Under the pieces are notes generated by a model that saw nothing but the letters and a program-made list of their open reading frames with translations, did no database searches and was not told where the DNA came from. From Candidatus Omnitrophota bacterium (lineage in GTDB: Bacteria; Omnitrophota; Gorgyraeia; Zapsychrales; Fredricksoniimonadaceae), in the NCBI GenBank assembly GCA_903944345.1, contig CAJARJ010000015.1, positions 6,433 to 70,432 of the forward strand: a stretch of 64,000 nt of DNA, written 5' to 3'. A program made the position numbers and the translations under genes. Shown here piece by piece: positions 10,795-63,083 of the stretch. Every line of letters starts with the position of its first letter. Positions within the stretch are counted from its first letter, which is position 1.

Positions 10795-10803
10795 CGGTGA
10801 AAG

Positions 10804-10877
<74 letters not shown>

Positions 10878-10883
10878 ATGTCT

Positions 10884-11384: not shown

Positions 11385-11408
11385 GTTGCCGCCACCCTTC
11401 CTGAAAAA

Positions 11409-12701
<1,293 letters not shown>

Positions 12702-46238: not shown

Positions 46239-46904
46239 TTAAAGCCTTTCCGGATGATGCTTGACCACCTCGGCCTTGACCATGTAGATCACATCTTCGG
46301 CAATATAGGTAGCATGATCACACACCCGTTCCAGATGGCGAGCAGCCAGAATAAGAGGGACAGCACGAGGAGCAACGGCTCCGTCCTTGACTATATAATC
46401 ATAGATCAGCTCGTTTTGTATGCTATCCTTGAGCTTGTCCGCTTCGGAATCCATCAGGATAACACTTCTGGCCAGAGCGCTGTCTCTGGTAATAAACGAA
46501 TCGATAGCCGTCTTGACCATGCGCTGGGCCACCAGAGCCAGTCTGGGAGTTTCTACCAGAGGCTTCAAAAGAGGTGCGTCCGCAATCTCGAGAACCCGCT
46601 CGGCCACATCCACCGCCAAATCGGCAACCCGTTCCAGTTCCCCGTTAAGCCTCATACCCGTCATAATAAAACGCAAGTCCACGGCCATAGGCTGGTGACG
46701 AGCGACCAGATCAAGGCAAAGCTCGTCGATAACCAACTCCAGATCGTCAATCTGGCTGTCACGCTCGATAACCAAGCGGGCCATAGCCACATCCCGATTC
46801 TTGAGCGCCGTCACTGCCTGGTCGATCAATTCTTCAACCAGCGTGCCCATTTTCAAGATCCCGTCATTAAGATCCTGCAACTCTTCATGAAAATGCTTGC
46901 TCAT
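46239..46904 (-). CDS. phoU: Phosphate signalling complex protein PhoU
   Basis: Two repeated helical PhoU units ('DLELVIDE', 'ERVADLAVDVAER', 'ERVCDHATYIAEDV'). Confidence 0.9.
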   Translation of the reverse strand: MSKHFHEELQDLNDGILKMGTLVEELIDQAVTALKNRDVAMARLVIERDSQIDDLELVIDELCLDLVARHQPMAVDLRFIMTGMRLNGELERVADLAVDVAERVLEIADAPLLKPLVETPRLALVAQRMVKTAIDSFITRDSALARSVILMDSEADKLKDSIQNELIYDYIVKDGAVAPRAVPLILAARHLERVCDHATYIAEDVIYMVKAEVVKHHPERL

Positions 46905-46919
46905 AATCTTCTCCTGGGC

Positions 46920-47681
46920 TTAACCAAAACGTCCGGTAATGTAATCCTCGGTTCTTTTATCGCGCGGAGCCTTGAAAATAATCTCCGTTTGATCAAATTC
47001 GATAAGCTCACCCATCAGAAAAAAGCCAGTGTAATCAGAAACCCGCGCCGCCTGTTGCATATTATGTGTAACAATAACAATTGTATAGTCTTTTTCCAGT
47101 TCCAGAATCAGATCCTCAATCTTTTTTGTAGATATAGGATCAAGACTGGCACAGGGCTCGTCAAACAGAATAACCTCCGGCTCGATGGCCAGGCAACGCG
47201 CAATGCACAAACGCTGTTGCTGTCCGCCGGAAAGGCGCAGGGCACTGTCATGCAGCCGCCCCTTGATCTCCCCCCAAAGCGCCGCTTTCTTTAAAGAATC
47301 CACTACGCGCTCCTCGATGAGCGCTTTGTTACGGACCCCGTTGATCTGCAGGCCATAAGCGATATTCTCGAAAATACTCTTGGGAAAAGGATTCGGTTTC
47401 TGGAAGACCATGCCGACCCGTTTACGCAAATCGACAGCATCAACGTCGGAGCCAACCACATCCTTGCCGTCCAGAAGAATCCGCCCTTCCAGCCGGGCAT
47501 TGGGCACAATCTCATGCATCCGGTTGAGCAAACGAATAAATGTGGATTTTCCGCAACCGGAAGGACCGATAATAGCGGTAACCGCATTGTTGCGGATCTC
47601 CAGATTGATCCCTTTAAGGACATGATGAGCGCCGTAATAAAAATTCACATTCTCAGCCTTCATCCTGATCTTAGTGGCCAT
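46920..47681 (-). CDS. pstB: Phosphate ABC transporter ATP-binding protein
   Basis: 'GPSGCGKST', '[13 protein letters not shown]' and '[12 protein letters not shown]'. Confidence 0.92.
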
Positions 47682-48540
47682 GGGAAATGCCTTTCTTTCT
47701 CAAATGATAACGGAGGATCACCGCCGCCAGGTTCATGGCAAAAATCATGACAACCAGTACCAGCGCAGTGCCGTATGCAATCGGCCTAACCAGGGTAATG
47801 TTGTGATGCTGGGTTGACATGATATACAGATGATACGGCAAGGCCATAAACTGGCTCAGGATCGAATTGGGAATATCCGGCAGAAAGAATGCTGCCCCGG
47901 TAAAAAGAATAGGGGCCGTCTCACCCGCCGCACGGGATAACCCGAGAATGGTTCCGGTCAACATGCCCGGCACCGCATACGGCAAAACATTGCTCCAGAT
48001 CGACTGCCATTTGGTGGCGCCCAAAGCCAGCGCACCTTCCCGATACGAACGCGGCACCGTCTTTAAGGCCTCTTCGCTGGCTGTAATCGTCAACGGGAGA
48101 GTCATCAGGCCAAGCGTACATCCTGCCGCCAAAATGGAGGTTCCGAAATGAAGCATCTCCACAAAGAGCGACACCCCAAAAAGCCCGTACACAATAGATG
48201 GGACTCCGGAAAGATTCCGGATCGACATACGAATAAATCGTGTCAAACCGTTGTCCCGGGCATATTCATTAAGATAAATCGCGCACCCCATGCCCAAAGG
48301 AACCGAAAGCAGCGCCGTAATTATGGTTACAAAAAAAGTTCCCACAATCGCCGGGAAAATGCCCCCTTTAGTCATGCCGTCAGCCGGAGGTTGTGTCAAA
48401 AACTCCCAGGAAACAATCCCGATGCCCTTGGTGATAATATCGTAAAAAATAACCACCAGGATCATGCCCACCACAACCATGCACACACGCAAAGACATAA
48501 AACCAAAGAACTCAACAATTCGGGAATACCTGATTTTCAT
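47671..48540 (-). CDS. pstA: Phosphate ABC transporter permease PstA
   Basis: ABC permease with EAA-like loop '[13 protein letters not shown]'. Position in the pst operon. Confidence 0.85.
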
Positions 48541-49460
48541 CCCTGCACCTGCGTATGCTTGTGAAAAACGATGTCAGACACCAGATTGATCACAAAAGTA
48601 ATAAGAAACAACAATAAACCCACTGCAAAAAGCATATGAAAATGGGTTGTGTAGTAGGCCACCTCTCCCAACTCGATGGCAATCGTGGAAGTCATCGTCT
48701 TGACTGATCCCAGAAACCCTCTGGGAAATTCGGCGGAATTTCCGGTAGCCATAAGAACCGTCATCGTTTCACCTATAGCCCGCCCCATGCCCAACATACA
48801 AGCCGCCAGAATTCCTGATGCCGCGGCCGGTATCTTGACTTTGATCACCGTCTGCCAGCGGCTGGCGCCAAGCGCCAAAGAAGCTTCCTCATAGGAACGC
48901 GGCACAGCACTTAACGCGTCTTCGGAAAGACTGATAATCGTAGGCAAGGCCATGACCGCCAGCAGCACGGAACCATTAAGAGCGGTCAGCCCGCCATAAG
49001 TTCCGGTCAGACGAGCCAGGACAGGCCCCAACAAAACAATCCCCAGAAAACCAACTACCACTGAAGGAATACCCGCCAGAACCTCGACTGCGGGCTTGGC
49101 AATTTCACGCACACGGGGGCTGGCCACATCTGACAAATACGCCGCAGTACCCACCCCCAAAGGAACCGCCACCACAAGAGAACCAAGAGTCACCATCAAG
49201 GAGCTGGCCAACATCGGCAGAATCCCATAGGTCGGCTGCTCGTAAGCGTCCGGATTCCAAATCGGCGCCGTGAAGAAATGCGCAAAGTTGACCTCCTTGA
49301 ACGCCGGCAGAGCATTTTTGACCAGCAGGATAAAAATCCCCGCCAGGATCACAATAACAATAACCCCATTAATCAAGAAGAAGCTCTCAATGAGCTTCTC
49401 CTTGTTACGCCTGCTGATGAATTTGCCCGACAGCAATTTCTTACAATCCAAACTTGGCAT
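48537..49460 (-). CDS. pstC: Phosphate ABC transporter permease PstC
   Basis: ABC permease with 'LGMGRAIGETMTVLMATGN'. Position in the pst operon. Confidence 0.85.
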   Translation of the reverse strand: MPSLDCKKLLSGKFISRRNKEKLIESFFLINGVIVIVILAGIFILLVKNALPAFKEVNFAHFFTAPIWNPDAYEQPTYGILPMLASSLMVTLGSLVVAVPLGVGTAAYLSDVASPRVREIAKPAVEVLAGIPSVVVGFLGIVLLGPVLARLTGTYGGLTALNGSVLLAVMALPTIISLSEDALSAVPRSYEEASLALGASRWQTVIKVKIPAAASGILAACMLGMGRAIGETMTVLMATGNSAEFPRGFLGSVKTMTSTIAIELGEVAYYTTHFHMLFAVGLLLFLITFVINLVSDIVFHKHTQVQG

Positions 49461-50313
49461 TGGCTTCCTGATATTCTGCTGAGATCGGATAAAAACCTTC
49501 TTCTTCTACAATACGCTGTCCTTCAGGAGAAAGCTCGAAAGAAAGGAAATCTTTGGCTACACCTGTCGGTTTTCCATTCACATACTGATACAACGGCCGG
49601 GCAATCGGATACTCTCCCGCCTCAACCGCCGCTTTATCCAACGGACTGCTGTAACTCCCGCCTTCTTTCATGGCGACATTGATGATCGTCACTCCCGTAG
49701 CATGCTGGGCGTAACCAACACCAATATAACCAATGCCCGATGGATCAGCCTTGACAGCTTCCACAATCTGCGAAGTGCCATTCATCGTTTTCATCTTTGA
49801 GGAATATTCTCCCTTGAGCACCATTTCACGAAAAAAACCGTAAGTGCCCGAATTGGACTGCCGACCATAAAGGTTGATCGGCATATCCGCGCCACCAACC
49901 TCGGACCAATTCTTGATCTCGCCACGATAAATAGCTCCGATCTGACTGACCGTAAGACGGGAAATCAGGTTCTTGTCGTTGACGATCACGCTCAGCCCAT
50001 CAATTGCGATCACGATACGGCTGGGAGAAATTCCGGCAGCAACCGCGCTCTCAATTTCTTTGGGATTAATAGCACGGGACGCATTGGCAATATCACACTT
50101 TTTATTGATCATCGCCGCAATACCCGTTCCGGAGCCGCCACCCGTGACCGAAATCTTGGCCCCGGGATTCTGCTGCATATAAACCTCAGCCTGCTTCTGC
50201 ACCAGATTAATAATTGTATCCGACCCCTTGATCTGTATCATTTCCGCGGATGCGGCCGCAGCTCCGGCCAGCAGACCGCATACAGCCAAACCCAATTTAA
50301 CGCCCTTTATCAT
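49441..50313 (-). CDS. pstS: Phosphate ABC transporter substrate-binding protein
   Basis: Signal peptide. '...ISVTGGGSGTGIAA...' and 'GVGYIGVGYA' are PstS-family PBP motifs. Confidence 0.85.
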   Translation of the reverse strand: MIKGVKLGLAVCGLLAGAAAASAEMIQIKGSDTIINLVQKQAEVYMQQNPGAKISVTGGGSGTGIAAMINKKCDIANASRAINPKEIESAVAAGISPSRIVIAIDGLSVIVNDKNLISRLTVSQIGAIYRGEIKNWSEVGGADMPINLYGRQSNSGTYGFFREMVLKGEYSSKMKTMNGTSQIVEAVKADPSGIGYIGVGYAQHATGVTIINVAMKEGGSYSSPLDKAAVEAGEYPIARPLYQYVNGKPTGVAKDFLSFELSPEGQRIVEEEGFYPISAEYQEANAKFGL

Positions 50314-50381: not shown

Positions 50382-51704
50382 TTAGAACTTGAGATTAATA
50401 TCCGCCTGAAAAATTCTTTCGGGATAACTCTGCCCCTTTAAAACATCCGACATGTAGTAATCCAGACCCAAGCTGACGTTCTTGGCCAGACCAATATCCA
50501 GAATCAGCTCATTGCCTTTGATGTTTGTTCCGCCACTATAACGATCTGAATCCGGAAAAGCATCCAGCCACGCATCACTGGCCAGACGAACATACTGGTA
50601 CTTGAACTGCCAGGTCTTGGCACCGGAAACCTTCTTGTGTCCGATTTTCAATCCGGCGGCATAGCCTGTATTATCTGAATTCGGGTCGGGATTCATGACA
50701 TAGTCGCCAAACAGACCAACCATCTTGATAGGAGAAGATGTCTCTTCGGGCCAGGAATACACCAATTCAGCTGAACCGGCGTAAATATTGCCAAAATCAT
50801 AAACATACCTCGAGGATGCAACGGTGTTGCCAGAAACACGTCCGTCTATTAAAGACCCACTATCATCATTCTGCATACCATAAAAGGTTCCGGCTAGCTT
50901 GAAGTTGACCGCCTCTATCGGCTCGAACACCATCCCTGCCTGGGCATAATACATTCCAAGATCACTAGCCATTGACGAAGACTCATCCAGCACCCAGTAA
51001 CCGGCATTGACGAAAGCATCCCCCAGCAGCACCCTGGCAAAATCCGCATGAACCGAAGCGCCTTCCTGATTAATGTCGGAATCCCAAAGCATATCGCTAG
51101 TGTACCACAAGTAGTCTGTACCCATAGCGTTATACTTACCGCCAATCATCCTTAAAGACGAATTATATTTGTAGTCGGCATACGCATAATCAAGGCGGAT
51201 ATCCCCGCGGCTAAACCCATTCTGCATGGTCAGATTGGTAGAACGGGAATCGTCAACTCCGTTAGAAACCGTACACGCCGAGCCAGCCGCGCAGGACGTA
51301 GAACTTATCTTTTCGGCACTTGCCAGTCCCGCCGCAACTGTTACTTTCTCGTTAGGCTTAGTTTCGAGCCCCAGACGATAGCGTATCCGGCCGCGATTTC
51401 TGACCGTTCCACCTGTGGAAGTAGACGATTTTTTCTGCTGGGACTGATAACGCAGACGCAAATCTCCTTTTAGCTTGGTGGTCTGAATCCATGAAGGAAG
51501 CATATCATTTGCCCCTTTGGCATTCTGTTTGGCCACATCCTGCCTGGTTTCATCCATCAATATCTGGGCCTCGTTAGGCGCAAGAACGCCCTTCTCGACT
51601 AATTTCTGAACAAGGAGATCGACCTCCCCGGCGTAGGCCGACGAAACGCCCAGACTCAGCGCCGCCCCCCACAACAAAAACACCGCAAGAACTCCATTAC
51701 GCAT
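50382..51704 (-). CDS. Putative outer-membrane porin (possibly phosphate/anion-selective). Start at ATG 51704; the ORF-track N-terminal extension was rejected.
   Basis: Signal peptide 'MRNGVLAVFLLWGAALSLGVSSAYA'. N-terminal helical segment, then alternating beta-strand pattern ending in a C-terminal Phe ('INLKF'). Position between the pst and phoR genes. Confidence 0.55.
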   Translation of the reverse strand: MRNGVLAVFLLWGAALSLGVSSAYAGEVDLLVQKLVEKGVLAPNEAQILMDETRQDVAKQNAKGANDMLPSWIQTTKLKGDLRLRYQSQQKKSSTSTGGTVRNRGRIRYRLGLETKPNEKVTVAAGLASAEKISSTSCAAGSACTVSNGVDDSRSTNLTMQNGFSRGDIRLDYAYADYKYNSSLRMIGGKYNAMGTDYLWYTSDMLWDSDINQEGASVHADFARVLLGDAFVNAGYWVLDESSSMASDLGMYYAQAGMVFEPIEAVNFKLAGTFYGMQNDDSGSLIDGRVSGNTVASSRYVYDFGNIYAGSAELVYSWPEETSSPIKMVGLFGDYVMNPDPNSDNTGYAAGLKIGHKKVSGAKTWQFKYQYVRLASDAWLDAFPDSDRYSGGTNIKGNELILDIGLAKNVSLGLDYYMSDVLKGQSYPERIFQADINLKF

Positions 51705-51873
51705 ACTCTTTTCCCCTTTCTTGGTTTGCTTCGGATCGCTGTCGATCTTTTGCCACAAGAATAGAGTAAAAGTATGACAAGATGATGTCGGGGATGTTAA
51801 ATCGGCGTGAACTGTTTGATTTCGGGGGAAATTTTTGAAAGCGCAGGAATGCAAGTGTCTACAAATAAATACT

Positions 51874-53679
51874 TTAAGCGTAGGAAAGCGTGAAAGAAAA
51901 TGTTGCCCCCTTCCCTGGGGCCGAAACGACCTTCACCTCGCCACCGTGCCCCTGAACGATATGCTTGACGATCGACAACCCCAAACCCGTGCCTCCCAAC
52001 TCGCGCGAACGCGCCTTGTCGACACGATAAAACCGCTCAAAGATTCTTGGCAAATCATCGGCGGGGATGCCCACCCCAGTATCTGCGATCTCAATCCGGA
52101 CATGCTCTTCCCCGGGCAGGATTCTTACCGTAATCACGCCCTGATCGGGAGTATATTTTACAGCATTATCCAGCAAATTAAGAAAAACCTGGGCCAGACG
52201 ATCTTCATCCGCCCTGACTTTGGGAGAATTCCCGGGGATATCCAGCGAAACCTGTATACATTTTCTGGAAATATTCTTTTCCAGAACTCCCAGACAACGC
52301 AACACAAGTGGCCTGAGATCAACGGGCATAAAAACCATCGGCAATTTGCCTGACTCGATCTTGGCCAGATCAAGAAGATCATTGATCAAGCTGACCAGCC
52401 GGTCACTGTTATCCCGGATAATACCCGCGAACTCGCGTGCATGCTGCGGGTCATCCAAAGCGCCTTCCAGCAAGGTCTCGGCATACCCCTTTATGCTTGC
52501 GACCGGCGTACGCAGCTCATGCGAAACATTCGCCACAAAATCCTGGCGCACTTTCTCCAAACGGCGACGCTCAGTGATATCATGAAAAACCAGCACCGCC
52601 CCTTCCGGCTTTCCGGCAGACCGGACCGACACCCCGCTCACCTTGAGAATCCTTTCCTCGGGAAACCCTACAAAAACATCGCGTTCGTCAAAACGATCCG
52701 GACCTTTAAGAAGTTTTTCGAGCATAGCGCTGACCGTGCTGTTACGGATAACCTCGACCGATCGCCGACCTTCCGGCGGAATATCGACAAAGAATAGCTT
52801 GCGCAAAGCCGGGTTCATCAGACGGATCACACCTCGGGCATCCACCAGCACGACTCCCTCAAGCATACTGGAAAGCACCGCATCCAGTTTTGCCTTTTCT
52901 TCCTCAATATCATTGATCCTGGCCCGAATCTGCCGGGACATGTTGGTCAAAGCATCCCCCAGGTCACCAAGCTCATCACCGGAGAGGATCAGCGGGGCCC
53001 GGCTGAAATCCCCGGACGCCATAGCCTTGGCCAGCAAAGACATTTCCCGGAGCGGCTTTGAAACGAGCACCGAAACCAGATATGTAAAGGCAAGGCTCAA
53101 AAAAAACACCAACACCAAAGCCACCAGGACAATGCTTTCGAGACCTTCTGCAAACAGGCGGACATCAGACATCGGCATGGCAAAACGCAACACACCGGAA
53201 GTCGAGGCATTCCCAAACGGCACCGCAACATAAAGCAAATCTTTCTTAAGAGTGTTGCTGTAGCGACGGCTCAGCCCGAGCCCCGTCCGCAGAGCCTCCT
53301 GGACTTCCGCTCTGCCTGCATGATTGTCGACGGATAGCAACTCTTCCGTCGTTAATCCGGAGTCACCCAAAACTTTTCCGTCAGCTGAAAGAATAGTCAC
53401 CCGCATCCCCGCATCAACTCCTATCCTGCGAGCCAACGCGGAAGGGTCGGATAACCGGCCGGTCAGATGAATCTGCTCGTCCATAAAGCCTCTGGAAAGC
53501 TCGATCTGCCTCTTGAGAGTGTTCTGCAGATCCTGTTCCAGAAAAACTTTCAAATGACTGGTCAGATAAAAATATCCGAGACAAAGCCCGGCTATCAAAG
53601 TGGAACAGAAAATGGCCGTAAGCTTCCAGGGGAGTCTAGCTCTCATTTTCATCCTCTCTGAATCGGTAGCCGACACCAA
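51874..53679 (-). CDS. phoR: Phosphate regulon sensor histidine kinase
   Basis: TM, HAMP, PAS, then HisKA 'SHELRTPVASIKGY' and HATPase_c ('NLLDNAVKYT', 'DTGVGI', 'GGTGLGLSIV'). Confidence 0.85.
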   Translation of the reverse strand: MVSATDSERMKMRARLPWKLTAIFCSTLIAGLCLGYFYLTSHLKVFLEQDLQNTLKRQIELSRGFMDEQIHLTGRLSDPSALARRIGVDAGMRVTILSADGKVLGDSGLTTEELLSVDNHAGRAEVQEALRTGLGLSRRYSNTLKKDLLYVAVPFGNASTSGVLRFAMPMSDVRLFAEGLESIVLVALVLVFFLSLAFTYLVSVLVSKPLREMSLLAKAMASGDFSRAPLILSGDELGDLGDALTNMSRQIRARINDIEEEKAKLDAVLSSMLEGVVLVDARGVIRLMNPALRKLFFVDIPPEGRRSVEVIRNSTVSAMLEKLLKGPDRFDERDVFVGFPEERILKVSGVSVRSAGKPEGAVLVFHDITERRRLEKVRQDFVANVSHELRTPVASIKGYAETLLEGALDDPQHAREFAGIIRDNSDRLVSLINDLLDLAKIESGKLPMVFMPVDLRPLVLRCLGVLEKNISRKCIQVSLDIPGNSPKVRADEDRLAQVFLNLLDNAVKYTPDQGVITVRILPGEEHVRIEIADTGVGIPADDLPRIFERFYRVDKARSRELGGTGLGLSIVKHIVQGHGGEVKVVSAPGKGATFSFTLSYA

Positions 53680-54346
53680 TGACCGTCTCGATCAAAGCCC
53701 CGGACTCCCCCAGCTTGGAGCGCAAGCGCCGGACATGCGTATCAACCGTACGCGTATATACATCCGCCCCTATACCCCAGACTTCCTTGAGCAGCCTTTC
53801 CCGATCGAGCACCCGTCCACGGCGCTCCATCAAGAGCACAAGAAGCCGGAACTCCATGGCAGTCAAGACAACCTCCTGGTCTTTAACCGACACCACATGC
53901 CTGGTGACGTCCACAACCAGTCCGCCGGCACGTAAAGGCTTGGGAGCGGAATTCTCTTCTTTGACCAACGAACGACGCAACAGCGCCTTTACACGCAACA
54001 CCAGTTCACGGGGGCTAAAAGGTTTGACCACATAATCTTCAGCCCCGAGTTCGAGCCCGACAATGCGGTCAATTTCCTCCCCTTTGGCAGTAAGCATCAT
54101 AACCAGAATATGCTTACGCTCCGGATCCTGTCTGATCTGGCGGCAGACTTCCAGACCATCTACCCCTGGCAGCATGACGTCCAGAATCACCAGATCGAAA
54201 GACTGCCGGGCCAGCATGGACAACGCCGCCTCTCCGCTGGCAGCCGTTTCAGCAACATACCCCGCCTTGCCCAGATTGTACTGGACCAGTCGCGCGATAT
54301 CCTTGTCATCTTCAACAACCAGTATTTTTTCAGAACTCATGATCAA
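53636..54346 (-). CDS. phoB: Phosphate regulon response regulator (OmpR family)
   Basis: Receiver 'ILVVEDDKDIARL...LVILDVMLPGVDG' plus winged-helix 'LTAMEFRLLVLLMERRGRVLDRERLL'. Confidence 0.88.
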   Translation of the reverse strand: MIMSSEKILVVEDDKDIARLVQYNLGKAGYVAETAASGEAALSMLARQSFDLVILDVMLPGVDGLEVCRQIRQDPERKHILVMMLTAKGEEIDRIVGLELGAEDYVVKPFSPRELVLRVKALLRRSLVKEENSAPKPLRAGGLVVDVTRHVVSVKDQEVVLTAMEFRLLVLLMERRGRVLDRERLLKEVWGIGADVYTRTVDTHVRRLRSKLGESGALIETVIGVGYRFREDENES

Positions 54347-54430
54347 TATTTTAACAAAAAAAGAACTGTAAACATTCTTTATCCCGGATTTTTCTTTAGA
54401 AAATAAAAATCCGGCCTGAACCCCGGGCTG

Positions 54431-57400
54431 TCAGTGTGCCGCCCCCAGCCCCGAGAGTTCTGCCAGAAGAGGGACATTCCCGACGTTAACCGGCTCTATT
54501 CTGAAAATCATCGGGGTCAACCCCTGGATGTTCACCATAGCCGGATCCTGCATGTAGGCCGGAAGAGGCATCCCCTCGCCGTCGACTTTGATATCAATCT
54601 TCAGGTATTTCTCGTCCAGGCTTATACCACCCACTGGCTCTTGCGCCTGATCGGCAACAACCAAACCGGCAGCTGGTTGTTCTTGTTCCTCATGAAAATA
54701 CTGCAAATATATAGCCGCCAGCAAAACAGCTTGCTCGTCATATTGATTATCGAGCAGGGTAAGTCGCCCCATCAGCTCATCTTCCTGTCCCCTGCTTTCA
54801 TCTGCAGAAGGAGTCTTGTCTGCCTTAAGTGCGTCCAGCAGGGCCACCAGTTCCTCTTTCTGCCCCACAATAGTCATTATTGCCTGCATATGCTCATTGA
54901 CCCGTCGGTCTTCATCGACAGTCAACGCGGGCGGCAACGATACACCTTGCATATCTTTCAGCCACACCTGCAATTGATCTCGCGTCGCCTGCAAGGCAGG
55001 ACGTTGATCCTCCGCAACAACATTAACCGCATGATTATACCGATCCAGAGTTATCTGCAAAGCCGCCCGGGCAAAAGTGAAATCTGATTCGGGATCTCTA
55101 CCCGCCAACGGTTCCGCCTCTCTTTCTGGCTTAACTTGCGGCTCATCCAACTCCGTCGACACCGGCTCCAGCGCCGGAGCCTCAACGGACACCGGCCCTT
55201 CGGCCACAGACGGGACCACCGGAGGTGTTCTTCGCTGCAGCCTTTCTTCGTCTGACTCCCTGGTTTTTCTTTTCCAGATACTCGCAACCAGCCATACAAA
55301 TAATCCTGCAGCGGCCGTCCAGAGAGTCCAGACTGTTTTTGTTTCCCCAACAGATACAGATGGTTTCGCCGGCTCTTTCACTTCCGGCTTCTGTTCTGCG
55401 GACGGAACCGCCAGAGACTCCCACTCCCGCAATAACTCACTCAATTGACCGGAATAAAAATTAGCCAGCCGCCAGCTCTCGGAAGACACCTGCCCGTTAG
55501 TCTCATTCTTATCCTGCCAGTCGGACACATTATCCAGTGTCTTACGAATCTGCTCTTTTACGCCATTGACATCAATGCCCTGAAGACTTTTTTGCGCCTG
55601 AATCAGAGTTCTTTGCGTACCAACTCTAAAATTCTCCATCGGCTGCCACAACCGGGGAACAACTATGCCAACTTGTCTCGCGGACAGCAACTGCACCTGC
55701 AATTGTTCCGTCTGACTCTTTAATTGCGCCAATGCCTCTGAAGAAGCTCCACTATTTTGTCCCTGGACATATCTTCCCGACACATCCTCAATCTGGCGAG
55801 TAAGCTCTTCTATCCTCTGAACAAAAACAATGCTCTGTTTTGTGGGCACCACAGATTTGACGCCTGCGGATGATGGTGTTGCCGGAACATGTGTCGCCGC
55901 CTGATATTCAGTGGCATATCGAACCGCATACACCTTCCCTTTCCAGCCAAACAATCTGACTTCATTGAGCACAGTTCCCCCTTTAGCCCCCTGCCTGAAC
56001 GCCTGGCTGAATGAACCGCCAAAAACCGGAACACTGGCCTCGCCATACCGGATGGTCGTATGATTGACTACGGGCCTCTCGACAACAAGAGCTTCCGTTG
56101 CCGGAGCATCTTGCCATAACTTCCGGAGCTGCGCTTTCCGGGCAGGATGACTTTCCAGATAAGCGAAAGCCTTGGCCTCCATTGTATCAAGATACTCATT
56201 GGCAGGGGCCGCACCAACAAAAGCCGGAGATAAAGCCCCCAAACCCAGAACAAAGGCCATAACTCCTGCCCGCAATGTCTGCAGCAAAGTTACAGAAGCC
56301 GCATCATAAGAACCCGTCTGTTCCCCGACAACCCGAGCTGCCTCGACAGCTCCTACGGCAGCAAGCACCTCAGGATTCATAACAATTCCACCCGAGAAAT
56401 ATCTGCGCGGAACCAGCTGTCTGGTGGCGGCATCAAAATCTTCCTTGATGTAATCGTAAGCTCCCGTCTTGTAGGCCTCCAGATACTGTTGGTAAATCTT
56501 CTCCCTGGCCCCCGGATCATCCACTTCAATGCCTGCGACCTTGCTTTTATCAGCATAGACCTGGCCCAACAGACTTTCCTTGAGCGCGCGCTTGAACCAA
56601 ACCGCCAGAATCATGGAATCATATATCTGACGCAACAAGGCAAAATTCTTGCCCTCGTTCACCTCTTGCTCGATAATCGGAATAATAATATCCCGCAACA
56701 CCTCCGTTGAAAGTTGCCGCGAACCATCCCGACTTTCCGCCCCTACCGAAGCATCGGCGACGATCCCGGCTTGACGCCCGCCTTCTTGCGCAAGAAAATC
56801 CTGCTCAAGCATGACCTTCAGATGCCTCTTCACCAGAAGCACCGTATCACCCTTCTGGTAAATTTCCGCTTTATCCGGAGTAATCCATACCTTGTTAAAC
56901 GTGTCCAGGGGTATATCTGTTGTGCCCAGTTCCTGCGTCGCCCGGGCATAAACCCTGGACCAGAACTCCTTCCCGCTCTCGCCTTCCGGATACATTAACG
57001 ATGATGTCAACTGTTTGAGCAGATAGTCCTGCGCCAATAAGTCCTTGCCCATCCCGGTTCCGGCAAAATTGTCGGGCATAATGCGCTCAGACTCGTAGGG
57101 CGACAAGTTGACCCACATATCTGTGTTGGGTATGGTCAAAGAGGCCAGAAAATATTTGATCAGACGTTTATACTCCTCTTTCTTGAGATCCGGAGCCATA
57201 TGCTCCTGCCCCTTGTGCATCACAAAAAAGAAATTGAACGGATCCTTGAAATCCGTCCGCAAGCCAACCATATGTGCCGGCTGAAATCCCTCACTGCGGC
57301 TGATCATCTCCCCTGGCAAAGGCATAAGAGCAGCAACCTGGGCGTACCCTGCCGCCTGCCCAGGAACGGTAGCAAAAAATGCCGCCATAACCAGACAAAC

Positions 57401-57442
57401 CGCCGATCTAAACCAGCAATATTTTTTCAACTTCTGAAACAT
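54431..57442 (-). CDS. Large secreted/membrane-anchored protein of unknown family (1003 aa), paralog of the upstream 1465-aa protein
   Basis: Signal peptide, then a conserved ~330-aa N-terminal domain ('KYFLASLTIP', 'WVNLSP', 'IPLDTF', 'IIPIIEQEVNEG', 'ILAVWFKR', 'VPRRYFSGG'). Internal TM 'TVWTLWTAAAGLFVWLVASIW'. Acidic/Pro-rich C-terminal half. Confidence 0.7.
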   Translation of the reverse strand: MFQKLKKYCWFRSAVCLVMAAFFATVPGQAAGYAQVAALMPLPGEMISRSEGFQPAHMVGLRTDFKDPFNFFFVMHKGQEHMAPDLKKEEYKRLIKYFLASLTIPNTDMWVNLSPYESERIMPDNFAGTGMGKDLLAQDYLLKQLTSSLMYPEGESGKEFWSRVYARATQELGTTDIPLDTFNKVWITPDKAEIYQKGDTVLLVKRHLKVMLEQDFLAQEGGRQAGIVADASVGAESRDGSRQLSTEVLRDIIIPIIEQEVNEGKNFALLRQIYDSMILAVWFKRALKESLLGQVYADKSKVAGIEVDDPGAREKIYQQYLEAYKTGAYDYIKEDFDAATRQLVPRRYFSGGIVMNPEVLAAVGAVEAARVVGEQTGSYDAASVTLLQTLRAGVMAFVLGLGALSPAFVGAAPANEYLDTMEAKAFAYLESHPARKAQLRKLWQDAPATEALVVERPVVNHTTIRYGEASVPVFGGSFSQAFRQGAKGGTVLNEVRLFGWKGKVYAVRYATEYQAATHVPATPSSAGVKSVVPTKQSIVFVQRIEELTRQIEDVSGRYVQGQNSGASSEALAQLKSQTEQLQVQLLSARQVGIVVPRLWQPMENFRVGTQRTLIQAQKSLQGIDVNGVKEQIRKTLDNVSDWQDKNETNGQVSSESWRLANFYSGQLSELLREWESLAVPSAEQKPEVKEPAKPSVSVGETKTVWTLWTAAAGLFVWLVASIWKRKTRESDEERLQRRTPPVVPSVAEGPVSVEAPALEPVSTELDEPQVKPEREAEPLAGRDPESDFTFARAALQITLDRYNHAVNVVAEDQRPALQATRDQLQVWLKDMQGVSLPPALTVDEDRRVNEHMQAIMTIVGQKEELVALLDALKADKTPSADESRGQEDELMGRLTLLDNQYDEQAVLLAAIYLQYFHEEQEQPAAGLVVADQAQEPVGGISLDEKYLKIDIKVDGEGMPLPAYMQDPAMVNIQGLTPMIFRIEPVNVGNVPLLAELSGLGAAH

Positions 57443-57455
57443 ATACCCTCCATTA

Positions 57456-60400
57456 TCATTTCTGTATCATCATTCCAAAAAACTGAAGAGGATCGGATAC
57501 GGGCTGAAAATTGAGTATCTCAAAATCGAACCCCGTAAAACCACTGTTTATCCTGGAAAAGATCACAGGATCTATCCCCCCCTGAGCCACAACACCGGTC
57601 GCATGCCCCATGAAGGAGATGCTTCGCGGGGCCGCCGAAAAATCCAGACCACCATTTGCGATCATTTCCTCTGCCTGGGCACTATCTCCATCTGAACGCA
57701 ATTGAGCATGATCACTGTCCTGACCCGAAACAGAACGGTCAGAAACATTTACACGGGAGGCCGACATCAATCCAGACAAGTTGCCAGAAGAGCCTTGCAC
57801 GGGCATGGTGGGATACAAGCCACCTGCTGTCAAACCCGATAAACGCGCCAAATTTTCCTGACCAGGCAGCGTACGGTAACGATCAGATTGGGCCCTTTGC
57901 CGCAGGCGAGCCAGGCTGCTCTGTCCGGGCAAAACCCGGACAGCCTTCTGCTGCGCGGCAAGGCTCGCACGATGCCCAGACCCCATCTCTTGCGGATTAC
58001 GAAAATCCGGCAATCCACCTTCTTGCAAAAGCTTCCTGGCACGATTGCGCGTTTCAGGGCTGTTCACAAAAACAATCGAGGCCGCGCCCTGATGTGGCAT
58101 AAGAGGGTTAGCCACCAGATCATCCCCTATCGCTTCCTCTCTGGCTTTAACAAACATTTTAAAGAACGGAAGCATGTGGGCACGCGCCTGTTCGCTGTCA
58201 TTCATCGAGTAAGAATCCCTGAAATCTTTCGCTTTCACCCTGGCATCGAGATAATGATCCTGGAGAATCTCTCCGATCGGCTTGACCAGAAGATTAATGC
58301 CATCCATGGTCATATGAAGATAATGATATTGCTTGCGGTACGGATCCAGGCCGTCTTTGAGCTTGTCCAGGATCCTGACCACTCTCGGGCCAAAACTGAC
58401 CAGACCGGTATAAGCAGGAAGATGCCGCATTTCTTCGCGGACGAGGCCATATTCTTCGTCGAGATGTCGTAACACTTCGCTGGGTAAAGGCTTGTAAACT
58501 TCCTCTTTGCGCAGCTCGTCAAAGTCCCTCTTTTCATGTATCGTCCGGACATGGAACCCGTCTTCAAAATGCTTCATGATCATAAAACCCAAGGACTTCA
58601 AATCCTTTTTACGGACAAAACTGGTCAGGATGTTGACGTCTCTTGGAACATACGGCGGAATAGTTCCCAGAAAAACATCACGGCTGTAAACGATAACTCG
58701 CCAGCCAGCATGATTCTTTAGAACTTTTTTAGAATCCATCATCTTCTGGGACATCCGGTAACCATTGATAACCGCCCATTCTAGGAAAATATCTTCCTGA
58801 TAACTGTCATCCCCGCGAAACACCACCAGGACATTCAAATCTCGCTCGGCAATACCTTTCAAGCGCGGATACTCTCCGAGGATACGCTGATCCTGCAGCA
58901 TCTGCTTGGCATATGACTGCGCATCAAAATAGGCGTTCATGCTCCCCTTGGTTCCGTTTGGCGGAACAACAAACAAAGGGACATCCGGACGAAAAAGACT
59001 GCCACCTTTGCGCTCTGCAATAAAATCTTCCAGCCCGGACACATATTCTTTCTTGCCAGGGATAAATAAAACCATATCCACACTCGGAGAATTCGTTGTA
59101 TTGCGTTCTCTTTGCTGGCTTTCTATCCCTTCCATAATCCCGAGACTGATCCTCGCCACCTGGGAATCACCATCAACTTGCGGCACTCGATTGCCCCGGT
59201 ACATATTAAGAAAATTGGTAAATTGATCCTCAAGCAGGCGGCTCATGGCCCGCAGGTCGGGAGCTTTGACATTAAAATGCGCCACCACCCAGAAAAGCGC
59301 CAGGCTTAACGCGAAAACCCCAAACCCTGACGCCGTAATAATTCCGGCAGAAAACATAGGAAGCTCAAGCGCGAACAAATAATTGAATCCTGTCAATATG
59401 GGATTCGCAAAAAACACGATAATCGGAAAGTAAAAAACTCTCCAGGCGCGACTCAGCAGGCTGCGGTATGTATTGATCTTTCTGCCGCTGGCCCCCATCA
59501 CGGGAAAAAGGCTGTCGGCTTTTTCAATCATTTCGTTAAGGCCACTGATGCCCTGACGCACAATCAGCCCGCGATCCTCCTTTGATCCGTACAAATCCGG
59601 AATAATGTCATTCTGCAGCTCCAGTAACTGCGGAACAAGTCGTCTGAGTTCATTCAGCGACCGGTCCAGCCGGTACTGATCCATAAGCACCCAACGGATA
59701 AATGGCGCAAACGGAAACCACCAGCGCTCCATCCAGTGACGCTTGTCCATCTTGTAGCTGATCACTTTGTCAACCACGGCCCTGTATTCAAGAACCTGCA
59801 AATATTTGACTGCAGACATTCTCATCTTGTGAAGCTGCCGGATGTCCCGCAGGATAATGCTCCGGTCTTTATCGCCTAGCGGAGGGTTGCTTGCCAGATA
59901 CCCGGACAGAATCTCCAGCGTATCCATACTTAAGAAATTAAAGTCCGTCAGCAAGTTGCGATACTGCACATTACGCGGGAAACTGTCCACATCCCTGGAT
60001 ATTAATGACGGCAGAAATGCTGTCTTGCGGATGAACATATATGCATTATTCATGATGCCGTTAAGGTCGGCCAGAACCTGCTTTTGCAGCAGATCTTTCT
60101 GCAAAGCATCTTCCTGAGAATAGGCAAAGAAATCCTTGTTGCCCCAGCCAACCAGGGTTTCACTCCATCTGAGCAAATGTGCCTTGATAAAATGCGTCTT
60201 CTCGGTTCCTTTGGCAGAAAGACTGGTGACAAGCACCCCTCGGGACGCTTCAGTCTCGTCGGTTGCCGCTACTTTCATTTGCCTGCGCAGAATATCGGCC
60301 AGAACCTGCAACCTGTTCCCGGATAAGGGTGCCCCTTTGCGGAACAAGTCCTCCCCGAAAACGGTCAGCGCATACTTCTTCCACCAGAACGAAAAGGCTG

Positions 60401-61853
60401 ATTCCTGTGAATTGTCGAGCGCTTCTTCCGGCATCTTAATCTCAGAGCCAACAGCATCGGTCTCCGGCAACTCCGCAACAGCATCAACATTTTCTACCTG
60501 CGAAGCTATATATGGTACCGGCTGGTTGGCAACATCCGCCCCCGCAGACAAGGCGGCAGCTACCATAGCCGCGCTATTCTCGACCAGTTCGTCCCCCTGC
60601 AGCGCATCCGGAGCGACTTGCGGAATATCCAAAAGATTTTTTGTATTTCCACCTGCAAACTCTCCCCGGGGCATCAAGGCCACCGAGAAACGGACAATAT
60701 GCCGGCCAAGGCTTAAAAGAGCCCCAGGCAACCGCTCCCCCAGCGAAGCCACCGGCAGAAACCTGGTTTGCATGGCCGCGTCGCCAAGAGTCAGCCCGCC
60801 CGAAAAATACCGGCGAGGAATCATTTCCTGCCCCACCGGATCAAACTCTTCCCGAATCAAATCAAACACACCCTTTTTCAGCGCAACCATATACTGCTCA
60901 TAAACTTTACGCGCAGCATCTTTCTCGTCGATCTGTATTCCAGAAAGCTTTTGCTGGTCCGCGTACAGACGATTAACAATGCCGTCTTTCAATTTGCGCT
61001 TGAACCAGATCGCAAGAATCAGAGCATGATGCATTTGTCTCAAGGCAATAAAATGTTGCCCTTCATTAACCTCCCGCTCGATAGCCGGAATGATAATATC
61101 GCGGGCGACTGACACATAAGACTCTGATCCGGGCGTCGTGTTATAATCACGACCTTGCTCATTACGCTCGCTGTCGAAGTATTGCAGGCTCTGATGATCC
61201 TGATCCAGCAAGACTTTCAGATGACTTTCTGAAATAAAAGCCGCCCCATCCTGCTCATAAACAACAGACTCTCCTGGCACAACCCAGACCCGGCTGAAAG
61301 TATCCAGTGGGATAGAAATGTCTCCGTACTGTTCACGGACTTTTGCGTAAACCTCTCTCCAGAAGTTTTTCCCAAGCTCTGCATCGGGGTGCGTCAGCGA
61401 GGCTGCCAATTGTTTAAGCACGTAGTCTTCCCGCAAAAGATCCTGCCCCGCCGCTGTTTCTCCCAACTGGGAGTTGACAATACGATCCGGTTCAGAGGGA
61501 GAAAGGTTGACCCAAAGATCTTTTTCCGGGATAGTCAGAAAAGCCAGAAAATATTTTATGAAACGCTGCGCCTGCTCTTGAGGAATAGCAGTCGTCTCCC
61601 CGGCATCCGCCAAAAAATTGATCCTGAACGGATCCAGCGGATCAACCGAGATCCCCTGAAGAACGCTATAGGGTTTTACCGCCAAAGTTTCCAGCAAAAC
61701 ACCCGCTGGCGGCATGGCTACAGGACTCTGGGCATACGATAGATCCCGGCCAGCCAATCCGGCACAATAAAAGAAAACCAGCGCTCCGCACAAACGGCGA
61801 AACCATGGATGCGCACGAAAGCCACTCAAAAACCTTTGCCCTGTGAGGACCAT
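57456..61853 (-). CDS. Very large secreted/membrane protein of unknown family (1465 aa), paralog of the downstream 1003-aa protein
   Basis: Signal peptide. The same N-terminal domain ('KYFLAFLTIP', 'WVNLSP', 'IPLDTF', 'IIPAIEREVNEG', 'ILAIWFKR', 'IPRRYFSGG'). Central region with 3-4 TM helices ('FYFPIIVFFANPILTGFNYLFALELPMFSAGIITASGFGVFALSLALFWVV'). Q/S/G-rich low-complexity C-terminus. Confidence 0.7.
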   Translation of the reverse strand: MVLTGQRFLSGFRAHPWFRRLCGALVFFYCAGLAGRDLSYAQSPVAMPPAGVLLETLAVKPYSVLQGISVDPLDPFRINFLADAGETTAIPQEQAQRFIKYFLAFLTIPEKDLWVNLSPSEPDRIVNSQLGETAAGQDLLREDYVLKQLAASLTHPDAELGKNFWREVYAKVREQYGDISIPLDTFSRVWVVPGESVVYEQDGAAFISESHLKVLLDQDHQSLQYFDSERNEQGRDYNTTPGSESYVSVARDIIIPAIEREVNEGQHFIALRQMHHALILAIWFKRKLKDGIVNRLYADQQKLSGIQIDEKDAARKVYEQYMVALKKGVFDLIREEFDPVGQEMIPRRYFSGGLTLGDAAMQTRFLPVASLGERLPGALLSLGRHIVRFSVALMPRGEFAGGNTKNLLDIPQVAPDALQGDELVENSAAMVAAALSAGADVANQPVPYIASQVENVDAVAELPETDAVGSEIKMPEEALDNSQESAFSFWWKKYALTVFGEDLFRKGAPLSGNRLQVLADILRRQMKVAATDETEASRGVLVTSLSAKGTEKTHFIKAHLLRWSETLVGWGNKDFFAYSQEDALQKDLLQKQVLADLNGIMNNAYMFIRKTAFLPSLISRDVDSFPRNVQYRNLLTDFNFLSMDTLEILSGYLASNPPLGDKDRSIILRDIRQLHKMRMSAVKYLQVLEYRAVVDKVISYKMDKRHWMERWWFPFAPFIRWVLMDQYRLDRSLNELRRLVPQLLELQNDIIPDLYGSKEDRGLIVRQGISGLNEMIEKADSLFPVMGASGRKINTYRSLLSRAWRVFYFPIIVFFANPILTGFNYLFALELPMFSAGIITASGFGVFALSLALFWVVAHFNVKAPDLRAMSRLLEDQFTNFLNMYRGNRVPQVDGDSQVARISLGIMEGIESQQRERNTTNSPSVDMVLFIPGKKEYVSGLEDFIAERKGGSLFRPDVPLFVVPPNGTKGSMNAYFDAQSYAKQMLQDQRILGEYPRLKGIAERDLNVLVVFRGDDSYQEDIFLEWAVINGYRMSQKMMDSKKVLKNHAGWRVIVYSRDVFLGTIPPYVPRDVNILTSFVRKKDLKSLGFMIMKHFEDGFHVRTIHEKRDFDELRKEEVYKPLPSEVLRHLDEEYGLVREEMRHLPAYTGLVSFGPRVVRILDKLKDGLDPYRKQYHYLHMTMDGINLLVKPIGEILQDHYLDARVKAKDFRDSYSMNDSEQARAHMLPFFKMFVKAREEAIGDDLVANPLMPHQGAASIVFVNSPETRNRARKLLQEGGLPDFRNPQEMGSGHRASLAAQQKAVRVLPGQSSLARLRQRAQSDRYRTLPGQENLARLSGLTAGGLYPTMPVQGSSGNLSGLMSASRVNVSDRSVSGQDSDHAQLRSDGDSAQAEEMIANGGLDFSAAPRSISFMGHATGVVAQGGIDPVIFSRINSGFTGFDFEILNFQPVSDPLQFFGMMIQK

Positions 61854-62010
61854 ATCTTCATACCAGCAATTTCTGTAAGAACGAAACCTTCAACTGGATA
61901 GAAGTTTACAGTCCGTATGCAAAGAAACGAAGACAGGAATGTGAACTCTCTGTAAAATCTGCACAAAAAACTGGCAAACGGGAAAGAAACGGAAGGAAGA
62001 TATCCAAAAA

Positions 62011-62820
62011 TCAGACAAACAAGAGGAGGCTCAGGGCCATCAAGGCCATTCCACCCACAAAACCATAAATGCAGTGATGATGCTCTCCGTACTCTTCCGC
62101 AGACGGCACCAGCTCATCGATTGAAATAAAAACCATGATGCCGGCCACAACAGCAAAAAGAATACCGAACATAAGGTCATTAAAGAAAGGGCGCAACAGC
62201 ACAAATCCTACCAAGGCTCCGAGAGGCTCAAAAAGACCTGACAAAAATGAATACAGAAAAGCTTTCTTCCGGCTTCCGGTAGCATAATAAACCGGAACCG
62301 CCACGGCAATCCCTTCAGGGATATTATGCAAGGCAACCGCCACGGCAATCATGATCCCGAGCTTGGGGTCACTTAATGCGCTCATGAACGTGGCCAGCCC
62401 CTCCGGAAAGTTGTGAATCGCGATGACCAAAGCAACAAACAGTCCGGTCCGCTGCAGAGCCGGAGCCTTGCCCGGCTGGGCATCAAAATGATGAATTTCA
62501 TGCGGGTTATCGGCTTCCGGAATCAACTTGTCAATTATTGCTATCAGCGCCACCCCGCCAAAAAAAGCCCCCGCTGTGGCCCAGGCACCGGCTCTATCTC
62601 CCAGCACCGATACAAAACTCACCCGCGCTTTGGCCAGGATTTCGACAAACGAAACATAAATCATGACTCCAGCTGAAAATCCCAACGCCATCGCAAGAAA
62701 CTTCTTATTCATAGCCCGGGAAGATAAGGCAATCAAACTGCCAAATCCGGTTGAAAGGCCGGCAAAAACAGTCAATCCAGCCGCCATCCAAACCCGGGAT
62801 GAATCAAGATTTTCTAACAT
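62011..62820 (-). CDS. zupT: ZIP-family zinc transporter
   Basis: 'HNFPEGLA' and 'HNIPEGIAVAV' are ZIP signature motifs. Eight TM helices. Confidence 0.85.
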   Translation of the reverse strand: MLENLDSSRVWMAAGLTVFAGLSTGFGSLIALSSRAMNKKFLAMALGFSAGVMIYVSFVEILAKARVSFVSVLGDRAGAWATAGAFFGGVALIAIIDKLIPEADNPHEIHHFDAQPGKAPALQRTGLFVALVIAIHNFPEGLATFMSALSDPKLGIMIAVAVALHNIPEGIAVAVPVYYATGSRKKAFLYSFLSGLFEPLGALVGFVLLRPFFNDLMFGILFAVVAGIMVFISIDELVPSAEEYGEHHHCIYGFVGGMALMALSLLLFV

Positions 62821-62861
62821 ACTGTCCGTTCCCTGACTTGTTTATCACTGAAATGCCCCTG

Positions 62862-63056
62862 TTAACAACACTCTCTTTTGAAGCCGCATTTGCGTAAAAT
62901 CCATACCATTGGACACCAGTTCGTAAAAGCGGACTGCAACAGATTTAATGCGATAAATACCGTAAACCACAGCCATTGCAGACTCACATAGTACGCCAAC
63001 AGCAGGCTTATGAGAAGAAACATTCCGGCTATTCCTCGCAGCATTCTTTCGATCAT
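62862..63056 (-). CDS. Small membrane protein (DUF2892/YgaP-like)
   Basis: Two TM helices followed by 'NWCPM', typical of DUF2892. Confidence 0.5.
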   Translation of the reverse strand: MIERMLRGIAGMFLLISLLLAYYVSLQWLWFTVFIALNLLQSAFTNWCPMVWILRKCGFKRECC

Positions 63057-63083
63057 CCTGTCTCCTGTTTCTGGGCTCCGAAC

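Follow-up and report, generated by a model that had tools for sequence, protein, structure and literature searches.

Two tandem genes upstream of phoB-phoR in a Candidatus Omnitrophota bacterium encode members of a very large unannotated family with a predicted split scaffold

What are the two large proteins encoded directly upstream of phoB-phoR in the genome of a Candidatus Omnitrophota bacterium, and does their position tie them to the phosphate response? The genes, here called A and B, lie in a 64-kb stretch of DNA (contig CAJARJ010000015.1, assembly GCA_903944345.1; 64,000 nucleotides, hereafter the window). A sequence-only reading had described them as two giant envelope paralogs with a common N-terminal domain that it could not place, and had proposed a phosphate-starvation-linked surface system. 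Judged by sequence, A and B are members of a very large, unannotated family that is almost wholly restricted to Candidatus Omnitrophota. The explanation that accounts best for the observations jointly, and in which we have moderate confidence, is that of a split-scaffold family with a shared envelope handle, from which A and B would have been recruited locally to the Pho regulon.

Both open reading frames (ORFs), their sizes, their strand and the gap of 13 nucleotides (nt) between them were confirmed, and 84 nt separate B from phoB. A and B are 40% identical over 356 amino acids (aa; BLASTP, E=1e-83) at the N terminus alone, and every motif quoted earlier for this shared region of ~350 aa (the N-module) is present in the alignment. 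For synteny and selection we compared the locus with L001, a contig of an 82%-identical relative, in which the gene order is retained. In this comparison, at a proportion of synonymous differences (pS) of ~0.4-0.5, the ratio of nonsynonymous to synonymous substitution rates (dN/dS) is 0.05-0.38 across every region of A and B: 0.06-0.08 in the N-modules, 0.09-0.13 in the middle of A, 0.22 in the middle of B, and 0.38, thus under relaxed constraint, in the low-complexity tail of A. Because this is purifying selection, A and B are considered real coding sequence. Public data hold three versions of A with 1419, 1465 and 1502 aa. Only the 1465-aa start, for which a call also exists in NCBI/JGI, retains the signal peptide of the family and keeps the Pho-box-like site described below outside the ORF; in L001, the call of 1502 aa runs through that site. 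In public sources, A and B are both named 'hypothetical protein'.

Searches with the N terminus of B revealed the size of the family. A word-indexed search with residues 1-372 gave more than 1,266 matches at 45-64% identity, nearly all of them 'hypothetical protein' from metagenome-assembled genomes (MAGs) of Candidatus Omnitrophota/Omnitrophica and without a Pfam domain on the matched region. A HMMER search with residues 1-360 against 1.84 billion representatives of 50% identity clusters returned 7,821 representatives at E<=1e-3, including 6,111 at E<=1e-30, and among the 150 matches listed the N-module was always located at residues ~1-355 of targets with about 470 to 6,432 aa. A domain that heads at least 7,821 Omnitrophota protein clusters is not a phosphate-linked system as such. 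Nor are A and B giants, since their lengths are mid-range in a family that extends from 438 to 6,432 aa. The N-module has a mean identity of 57% among members, contains 35 invariant residues and ends with an invariant ..YFSGG. B scores 483 bits against the hidden Markov model (HMM) of the family and A 360 bits, the lowest of 140 members.

The earlier view that the shared domain falls outside any curated family was borne out and extends to known folds. A and B have no Pfam match at E<=1, only noise in NCBIfam and nothing in PADLOC; the N-module profile and the inserts of A and B match no sequence in the PDB; and the predicted fold of the domain, discussed below, resembles no solved PDB fold. 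The Omnitrophota papers searched, on giant proteins and complete genomes among others, do not mention the family.

A contig scan with one genome per species yielded at least 590 family loci, of which the best 80 were analysed with flanks of 10 kb on either side (1.24 Mb). About 60 of these 80 loci are labelled Omnitrophota/Omnitrophica, the others 'Planctomycetales' or 'Elulimicrobium' by their submitters. Single MAGs contribute several unlinked loci. Tandems are common: two or more members are present at 17/80 loci, the two members of a neighbouring pair share their strand in all 20 cases, and six pairs are less than 320 nt apart. The idea that a tandem combines one canonical with one divergent member, as in a heterodimer, was not supported by these 17 loci. 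The window contains no third copy of the shared domain by tblastn.

The members share more than the N-module. According to the sequence-only reading the paralogs differ past this domain; their middles are indeed unlike each other, but a C-module of ~60 aa is common to both. Full-length homologs end with the motif GGIDL(N/D)..L.h.I..DG.G.PLP...Q......I.GL.P.I..I.P, whose initial GGI is invariant (78/78 sequences). The C-module closes nearly all full-length members retrieved; of the 262 proteins examined for it with a simple pattern, 128 match, and the others include many partial sequences. Against Pfam, isolated C-modules gave noise only (E<=5). An HMM was built from 124 tails, leaving out A, B and near-identical copies. 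B matches it with residues 936-997 (75.8 bits, E=2e-25). The last 63 residues of A (aa 1400-1462) align with it from end to end; the isolated tail scores a weak 14.6 bits, and the best of 2,000 shuffles reached 10.1. As both proteins carry C-module matches, they belong to one bookended family, of which A is a divergent member. The family architecture consists of a predicted Sec-type signal peptide, the N-module of ~320 aa, an insert that ranges in length from 15 to over 5,000 aa, and the C-module. In the minimal member, P0014 (438 aa), a linker of only 15 aa connects the two modules.

From member to member the inserts are unrelated; most lack any known domain, and a few contain various enzyme or signalling domains. 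In a set of 122 full-length representatives, with mean identities of 57% (N-module) and 43% (C-module), the middle regions are similar at E<1e-5 in only 33 of 7,381 pairs, and over at least half of their length in six. A Pfam census of 43 members returned singletons only (HATPase_c, Pkinase, methyltransferases, Response_reg, ARMT1-like, GH26, HEAT); PGI, methyltransferase and HAD domains were seen as inserts in the word-indexed matches, and two members of ~4,000 aa contain no Pfam domain whatever. Among 5.8 billion proteins the insert of A has no homolog other than itself and that of the one 82%-identical relative, and the insert of B matches only itself.

Both N termini are predicted to be Sec signal peptides, in line with the earlier reading. 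In each, a hydrophobic core and the site (S/G)YA|Q accompany an n-region with positive charges; B has three Lys in this region and Arg12 inside the hydrophobic stretch, and the site residues A34 and Q35 are conserved in at least 90% of the family. Past the N-module, the Q/S/G-rich tail assigned to A was found, at aa ~1291-1399; its supposed multi-transmembrane core is instead one hairpin of two predicted helices. B has the acidic/Pro-rich region that was described, located after the second of two hydrophobic segments (386-414 and 704-722), where a single transmembrane (TM) segment had been claimed. A second signal-peptide-like segment 25-60 aa past the N-module, as in B but not in A, is present in 58/189 members as compared to 13.5% of control windows.

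N- and C-modules are predicted to form one scaffold domain. Their pairwise distances are correlated (Spearman 0.47; none of 500 Mantel permutations reached this value), and so are their HMM scores (rho 0.51, p=1e-10), with A near the bottom in the C-module and lowest in the N-module. Modelled alone with AlphaFold2, residues 1-360 of B gave a predicted local distance difference test score (pLDDT) of 76.7 and a predicted template-modelling score (pTM) of 0.71, with the last 60 residues poorly defined. P0014, modelled with a 78-sequence alignment, reached a pLDDT of 84.0 and a pTM of 0.84, and the tail of the N-module rose from a pLDDT of ~50-65 in the model of B alone to 81-86. With a pLDDT of 82-95 in spite of its mostly extended form, the C-module seems to be packed against the N-module. 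The predicted fold combines alpha and beta elements and has long helices. It shows no significant structural similarity to the TULIP or BPI-PLUNC lipid-binding fold and no resemblance to known S-layer or pilin proteins; the models thus predict a scaffold domain with a fold unlike any solved one.

What, then, connects A and B to phosphate? On the same strand the order of genes is A, B, phoB, phoR, porin, pstS, pstC, pstA, pstB and phoU (Table 1). The position upstream of phoB-phoR, part of the original description, was upheld: PhoB is the best NCBIfam match of the response regulator, at 235.9 bits and below the curated cutoff of 296, and the sensor kinase clears the PnpS equivalog cutoff (417.9 bits vs 400). 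PhoP of the B. subtilis type recognises TT(A/T/C)ACA-N5-TT(A/T/C)ACA, i.e. TTHACA-N5-TTHACA (PMC11870197), and PhoP of Streptomyces binds 11-nt repeats with the consensus G(G/T)TCAYYYR(G/C)G (PMC2275107). The region upstream of A (61854-62010), in which a search for Pho boxes had been proposed, contains one match to the former consensus. It is the sole exact match in the window on both strands, with 0.02 expected by chance, and it is identical in L001, with which the 157 non-coding nt before A share 92% identity, as against a difference of ~50% at synonymous sites.

A second repeat, with one mismatch, precedes the porin gene. The mechanical ORF start of this gene (TTG 51854) is too early; an ATG at 51704, which opens a signal peptide (MRNGVLAVF...), is kept in L001, and with this start the second repeat falls in the promoter region. 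In L001 the porin site is an exact match, TTCACAccaaaTTCACA, so that the substitutions keep the consensus. The two sites upstream of A and of the porin gene, at like distance from the ATG, are the only exact matches in the 21.8 kb of L001. The 1.24 Mb of other family loci contain two exact matches, neither of them upstream of a family gene. E. coli-type Pho boxes (CTGTCAT) are absent from the intergenic regions, and an Rfam scan of 54.3-62.2 kb gave no matches. By box and linkage, the A-B pair is thus plausibly phosphate-regulated in this lineage. The suggested co-transcription with the two-component genes agrees with the absence of an evident terminator between B and phoB, but phoB has its own conserved promoter-like element. 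The sole terminator candidate in that gap, a hairpin with z=-1.0, is not conserved in L001 and was discarded.

Elsewhere in the window, a one-mismatch repeat, TTTACAgtgtgTTTACT, is found at 42491-42507 (-), 63-79 nt upstream of a 219-aa ORF (41769-42428, -) that has no Pfam or NCBIfam match. This ORF may be a further gene under Pho control.

Table 1 Features of the A-B locus in the window (positions are those of the window; TM, transmembrane).
Feature	Position	Strand	Description
Gene A	57456..61853	-	1465 aa, divergent N/C-module family member
A signal peptide, predicted Sec	61731..61853	-	aa 1-41, ...SYA|Q; inspection and family consensus YAQ
A N-module	60786..61730	-	aa 42-356; BLASTP vs B E=1e-83
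A hydrophobic hairpin, two predicted TM helices	59262..59423	-	aa 811-864; Kyte-Doolittle scan
A Q/S/G/R-rich low-complexity tail	57657..57983	-	aa 1291-1399; composition
A divergent C-module	57459..57656	-	aa 1400-1465; end-to-end C-module HMM alignment
Gene B	54431..57442	-	1003 aa, canonical N/C-module family member
B signal peptide, predicted Sec	57341..57442	-	aa 1-34, ...GYA|Q
B N-module	56378..57340	-	aa 35-355
B first hydrophobic, signal-peptide-like segment	56201..56287	-	aa 386-414, after N-module
B second TM segment	55277..55333	-	aa 704-722, followed by Lys/Arg-rich stretch
B canonical C-module	54434..54637	-	aa 936-1003; GGISLDEKYLKIDIKVDGEGMPLP...GLTPMIFRIEPV
Pho-box-like direct repeat	61940..61956	-	TTTACAgagagTTCACA, 87-103 nt upstream of A ATG
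A-B spacer	57443..57455	-	13 nt, TAATGGAGGGTAT, GGAGG ribosome-binding site; kept in L001
B-phoB spacer	54347..54430	-	84 nt, conserved promoter-like TTTACA...AATATT
phoB-like response regulator	53636..54346	-	OmpR-family; Pfam Response_reg and Trans_reg_C
phoR/pnpS-type sensor kinase	51874..53679	-	HAMP-PAS histidine kinase
Second Pho-box-like repeat	51795..51811	-	TTCACGccgatTTAACA, one mismatch, 91-107 nt upstream of porin ATG
Porin_5 family porin	50382..51704	-	Pfam PF16930; probable true start 51704
pstS-pstC-pstA-pstB-phoU	46239..50313	-	Pfam and NCBIfam

The family in general is not pho-linked. PstS, PstC, PstA, PhoU or the porin was found within 10 kb at 0/80 family loci. An adjacent regulator-kinase pair is present at three of the 80, twice of the heavy-metal CztRS/CopRS type and once neither heavy-metal nor PhoBR. 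In the converse comparison, 0/80 metagenome phoB loci carried family modules, which is a weak test since these loci are mostly from other phyla. Plausible as it is for this locus, the phosphate link is not a trait of the family. Lack of conservation near pho genes in related genomes had been named beforehand as a finding that would speak against the link; the family as a whole shows this lack, whereas within the lineage the 82%-identical relative is syntenic.

The Pfam neighbourhoods of three other members all differ: pseudopilins with a FadL-like channel and a polyketide synthase (PKS) in one, an arsenic-resistance operon in another, and a BrnT toxin with a cellulase in the third. The arsenic-resistance operon is complete (L085 3828-9135; ArsR, ArsP, methyltransferase, ACR3, ArsC), and heavy-metal CztRS/CopRS-type systems likewise adjoin members (L048 4684-7051; L058 5836-8140). 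Together with the Pho case these hint, in numbers too small for a judgement, that members may often be attached to envelope or ion-stress regulons. At a single locus (L084 5120-5863), a papain-like peptidase gene (Peptidase_C1, weak C39_2) and three pseudopilin genes stand just upstream of a tandem member pair. The real recurrent neighbour clusters (Lnt-like, MetH-like) reach 10-11/80 loci at most. The largest cluster consists of long antisense ORFs within N-module genes (44/80 loci, e.g. L032 7529-9043 (-)), and this apparent family is an artefact because the N-module is strongly conserved.

Altogether, we favour the following picture. N- and C-modules would fold as one scaffold, with the insert placed at a junction flanked by invariant Gly-Gly (..YFSGG / GGIDL..). 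The scaffold would be a common handle for export, anchoring or assembly that puts diverse inserts in the envelope or on the surface, and the specific activity of A and B would reside in their orphan inserts. Behind a PhoP/PhoB-type box and at the head of the phoB-phoR-porin-pstSCAB-phoU cluster, A and B would open an autoregulated A-B-phoB-phoR unit; from this position they are probably co-induced with phoBR under phosphate limitation. Their recruitment into the Pho regulon was probably local and not a property of the family.

Several points weigh against this picture. The signal peptides were judged by eye and from the alignment consensus, (S/G)(Y/F)A|Q, and for A and B no consistent topology follows from the charges that flank their hydrophobic segments. 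No recurrent partner, secretion or sorting gene is found beside members across the 80 loci. Inserts such as HATPase_c, Pkinase, methyltransferase, Response_reg, PGI and HAD normally need cytoplasmic ATP or S-adenosylmethionine (SAM) and fit poorly with simple export. The evidence for docking of the two modules is indirect, namely pTM and pLDDT, taken from two models that differ in sequence and alignment depth, that of P0014 being deeper. The modules had been expected to be separated by an even number of TM helices, which was not borne out: by Kyte-Doolittle count 69 members have none, 41 an odd and 30 an even number, A and B having two each. This lack of parity argues against an obligate intramolecular docking, or else not all hydrophobic segments are membrane-spanning. 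With respect to regulation, the Pho box is a pattern match that was tested after the sequences had been inspected, TTHACA also resembles a -35 hexamer, and synteny is documented by one close relative only.

If A and B were ordinary family members that happen to stand upstream of phoBR, with the repeat being -35-like or due to chance, there would be no phosphate regulation at all. We regard such a coincidence as possible, though less likely than not. Family members are indeed scattered over many unrelated loci, and synteny is seen only in the close relative; TTTACA and TTCACA each agree with the -35 consensus TTGACA at five of six positions, and the 84-nt gap provides phoB with a conserved promoter-like site of its own. 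What speaks against coincidence is that the 64 kb contain the tandem repeat just once, that the only two exact matches of L001 precede precisely A and the porin gene of the pho cluster at equal distance from the ATG, that the porin box has changed in ways that leave the consensus intact, and that the region upstream of A has been kept at 92% identity against a synonymous difference of ~50%.

Going beyond the favoured picture, one might see in the N- and C-modules a split carrier domain of a new kind, specific to Omnitrophota: one fold with a single interruption, at the Gly-Gly-flanked junction, that tolerates inserts of between 15 and over 5,000 residues. It would be used for the export, display or delivery of unrelated cargo, possibly with cleavage at the invariant GG junctions and with members wired into different stress regulons. 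This we consider rather unlikely; if true, each pangenome would use this system, the phylum's own, for hundreds of cargo proteins without relation to each other.

In a related proposal, which we judge unlikely, the N+C scaffold would be a secretion or translocation handle and the inserts effectors for prey or host cells. Its logic would be that of polymorphic toxins or two-partner-secretion exoproteins. In its favour, the ends of the proteins are conserved and the inserts extremely diverse, and some inserts have enzyme domains in need of cytoplasmic cofactors, which would make sense within a target cell. Omnitrophota have been proposed to be host-dependent or predatory, with long surface proteins (PMC10066038; 10.1101/2023.11.21.568195), and one member adjoins pseudopilin genes and a C1/C39-like peptidase. 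Delivery of effectors is, however, at odds with several observations. The variable part is internal and the C terminus conserved, unlike in polymorphic toxins; immunity-like, transporter or secretion genes do not recur beside members at the 80 loci; Pfam and NCBIfam give no signature of two-partner secretion (TPS), the type IX secretion system (T9SS), autotransporters or repeats-in-toxin (RTX) proteins; and the inserts of A and B are under purifying selection (dN/dS 0.09-0.22), not arms-race diversification.

The scaffolds of paralogs could also bind each other or a common envelope component and so build a surface layer that displays the inserts, corresponding to the 'velamen' of coated Omnitrophota cells. 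We think such a coat or lattice quite improbable. In its favour are the unusual conservation of the scaffold between paralogs (57% mean identity, 35 residues invariant) next to freely varying inserts, the many copies per genome and the predicted signal peptide; but the TM segments of many members are atypical for S-layer proteins and the predicted fold does not resemble S-layer or pilin folds. Least tenable, and in our opinion very unlikely, is the original proposal that the shared N-domain defines a dedicated phosphate-starvation envelope system with PhoBR (adhesin, scavenging or lipid remodelling), because the adjacency to phoB-phoR-porin-pst on the same strand, the Pho-box-like site upstream of A and the synteny in the 82% relative are outweighed by a domain that heads at least 7,821 clusters of otherwise unrelated proteins, which refutes it at the family level, by its absence from the surroundings of pst, phoU and the porin gene (0/80 family loci) and from phoB loci (0/80), and by members located next to heavy-metal-type pairs, an ars operon, PKS or cellulase genes.

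Omnitrophota are widespread, uncultivated, ultra-small bacteria for which a life as dependents or predators of other cells is assumed. Long surface proteins are thought to be central to this lifestyle and are almost wholly unannotated. What thousands of Omnitrophota proteins have in common is a scaffold in two parts that had gone unrecognised, is highly constrained and has a predicted new fold; the two HMMs provide a handle for cataloguing a major part of the exported 'dark' proteome of the phylum. The minimal 438-aa member suits structure determination, and a domain that seemingly tolerates enormous insertions could interest protein engineers. With the local Pho box comes a testable regulatory link, and phosphate limitation may switch on specific members.

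The remainder of the window is ordinary chromosome, with an FtsH-like protease, an H+-pyrophosphatase, Lnt, a multi-subunit [FeFe]-hydrogenase and an MFS transporter. Upstream of A lies an intact gene for a ZIP-family metal transporter (62011-62820, 269 aa). The call in the relative covers a fragment of 135 aa (L001 9385-10000; L001/L002), and near its 5' end is a short tandem duplication in which GATGCAGGACGTATCTT occurs twice; the gene of the relative may be a pseudogene or an assembly artefact. A YgaP-like (PF11127) membrane-protein ORF of 64 aa is located at 62821-63083, between the genes for a LysM-YkuD L,D-transpeptidase and the ZIP transporter; it is called in related contigs and is shorter than the ORF length threshold applied to the window. 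The region 6000-12000 has a G+C content of 0.41-0.44 vs ~0.50-0.54 elsewhere, contains a gene for a tetratricopeptide repeat (TPR) protein, adjoins tRNA-Met (10803-10877) and may be acquired DNA.

How does the family compare with known systems? The regulatory part recalls the Pho regulon operons of B. subtilis and Streptomyces, in which direct hexamer repeats with 11-bp periodicity precede genes clustered with phoBR and pst, and the box of our locus has the core GTTCA in common with the Streptomyces repeat unit. There are differences: two clear repeats are found upstream of A where four are typical, the regulator scores below the NCBIfam PhoB cutoff, and the phylum is not known to have an experimentally determined Pho box.

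With regard to the proteins, TpsA exoproteins (FHA, ShlA, CdiA) combine a signal peptide, which is predicted in the family as well, and likewise a conserved N-domain of ~300 aa with large, diverse exported proteins, and occur as multiple paralogs. The family differs by the absence of a Haemagg_act/TPS Pfam match (E<=1), by a predicted mixed alpha/beta fold instead of a right-handed beta-helix, by the lack of a recurrent TpsB-like neighbour (POTRA plus beta-barrel) at the 80 loci, and by a conserved C-module predicted to join the N-module. Cargo proteins with the C-terminal domain (CTD) of T9SS and proteins with PEP-CTERM/LPXTG sorting signals resemble the family in a Sec signal, as predicted for its members, a short conserved C-terminal element, diverse cargo and lineage-specific expansion. 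Unlike T9SS cargo, A and B have no match to the Por_Secre_tail or type B CTD models or to any other Pfam or NCBIfam entry, and the family needs an N-module that co-diverges with the C-module; unlike sortase and exosortase signals, the C-module lacks the layout of motif, TM helix and basic tail. Classical autotransporters end with a beta-barrel of at least 250 aa, compared to ~60 aa here, and the family has no Pfam Autotransporter match. In LapA/RTX adhesins, too, conserved N- and C-terminal modules bookend a long variable region of a surface protein; the family, however, has a predicted Sec-type signal, which substrates of type I secretion systems (T1SS) do not have, no RTX/HemolysinCabind repeats, unrelated sequences instead of repeats as inserts, and no recurrent ABC transporter, membrane fusion protein (MFP) or TolC neighbours. 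Polymorphic toxins have their variable toxin domain at the very C terminus, with an immunity gene behind it. They differ from the family, in which variability is internal, the C terminus is conserved and no small ORF family recurs downstream; B is followed by phoB. Since each of them fails the test of membership, TPS domains, T9SS CTDs and LapA-type adhesins are comparisons of logic, not of ancestry.

The giant proteins of Omnitrophota themselves (West-Roberts et al. 2023 bioRxiv; 2026 preprint; Seymour et al. 2023) are another case. The 'Archaeovorin' and Dockerin types have more than 10,000-100,000 aa and contain C39/S8 peptidase, dockerin/discoidin or SecA-like parts, as opposed to A and B with 1.0-1.5 kaa and without Pfam domains; the N-terminal regions of the giants are stated to be without identifiable domains (10.1101/2023.11.21.568195). 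Giants and family members are alike in being from the same phylum, in signal peptides (predicted in the family) and/or TM segments, in occasional kinase, methyltransferase, HATPase and HAD-type domains, and in being mostly unannotated proteins for which a role at the surface has been proposed.

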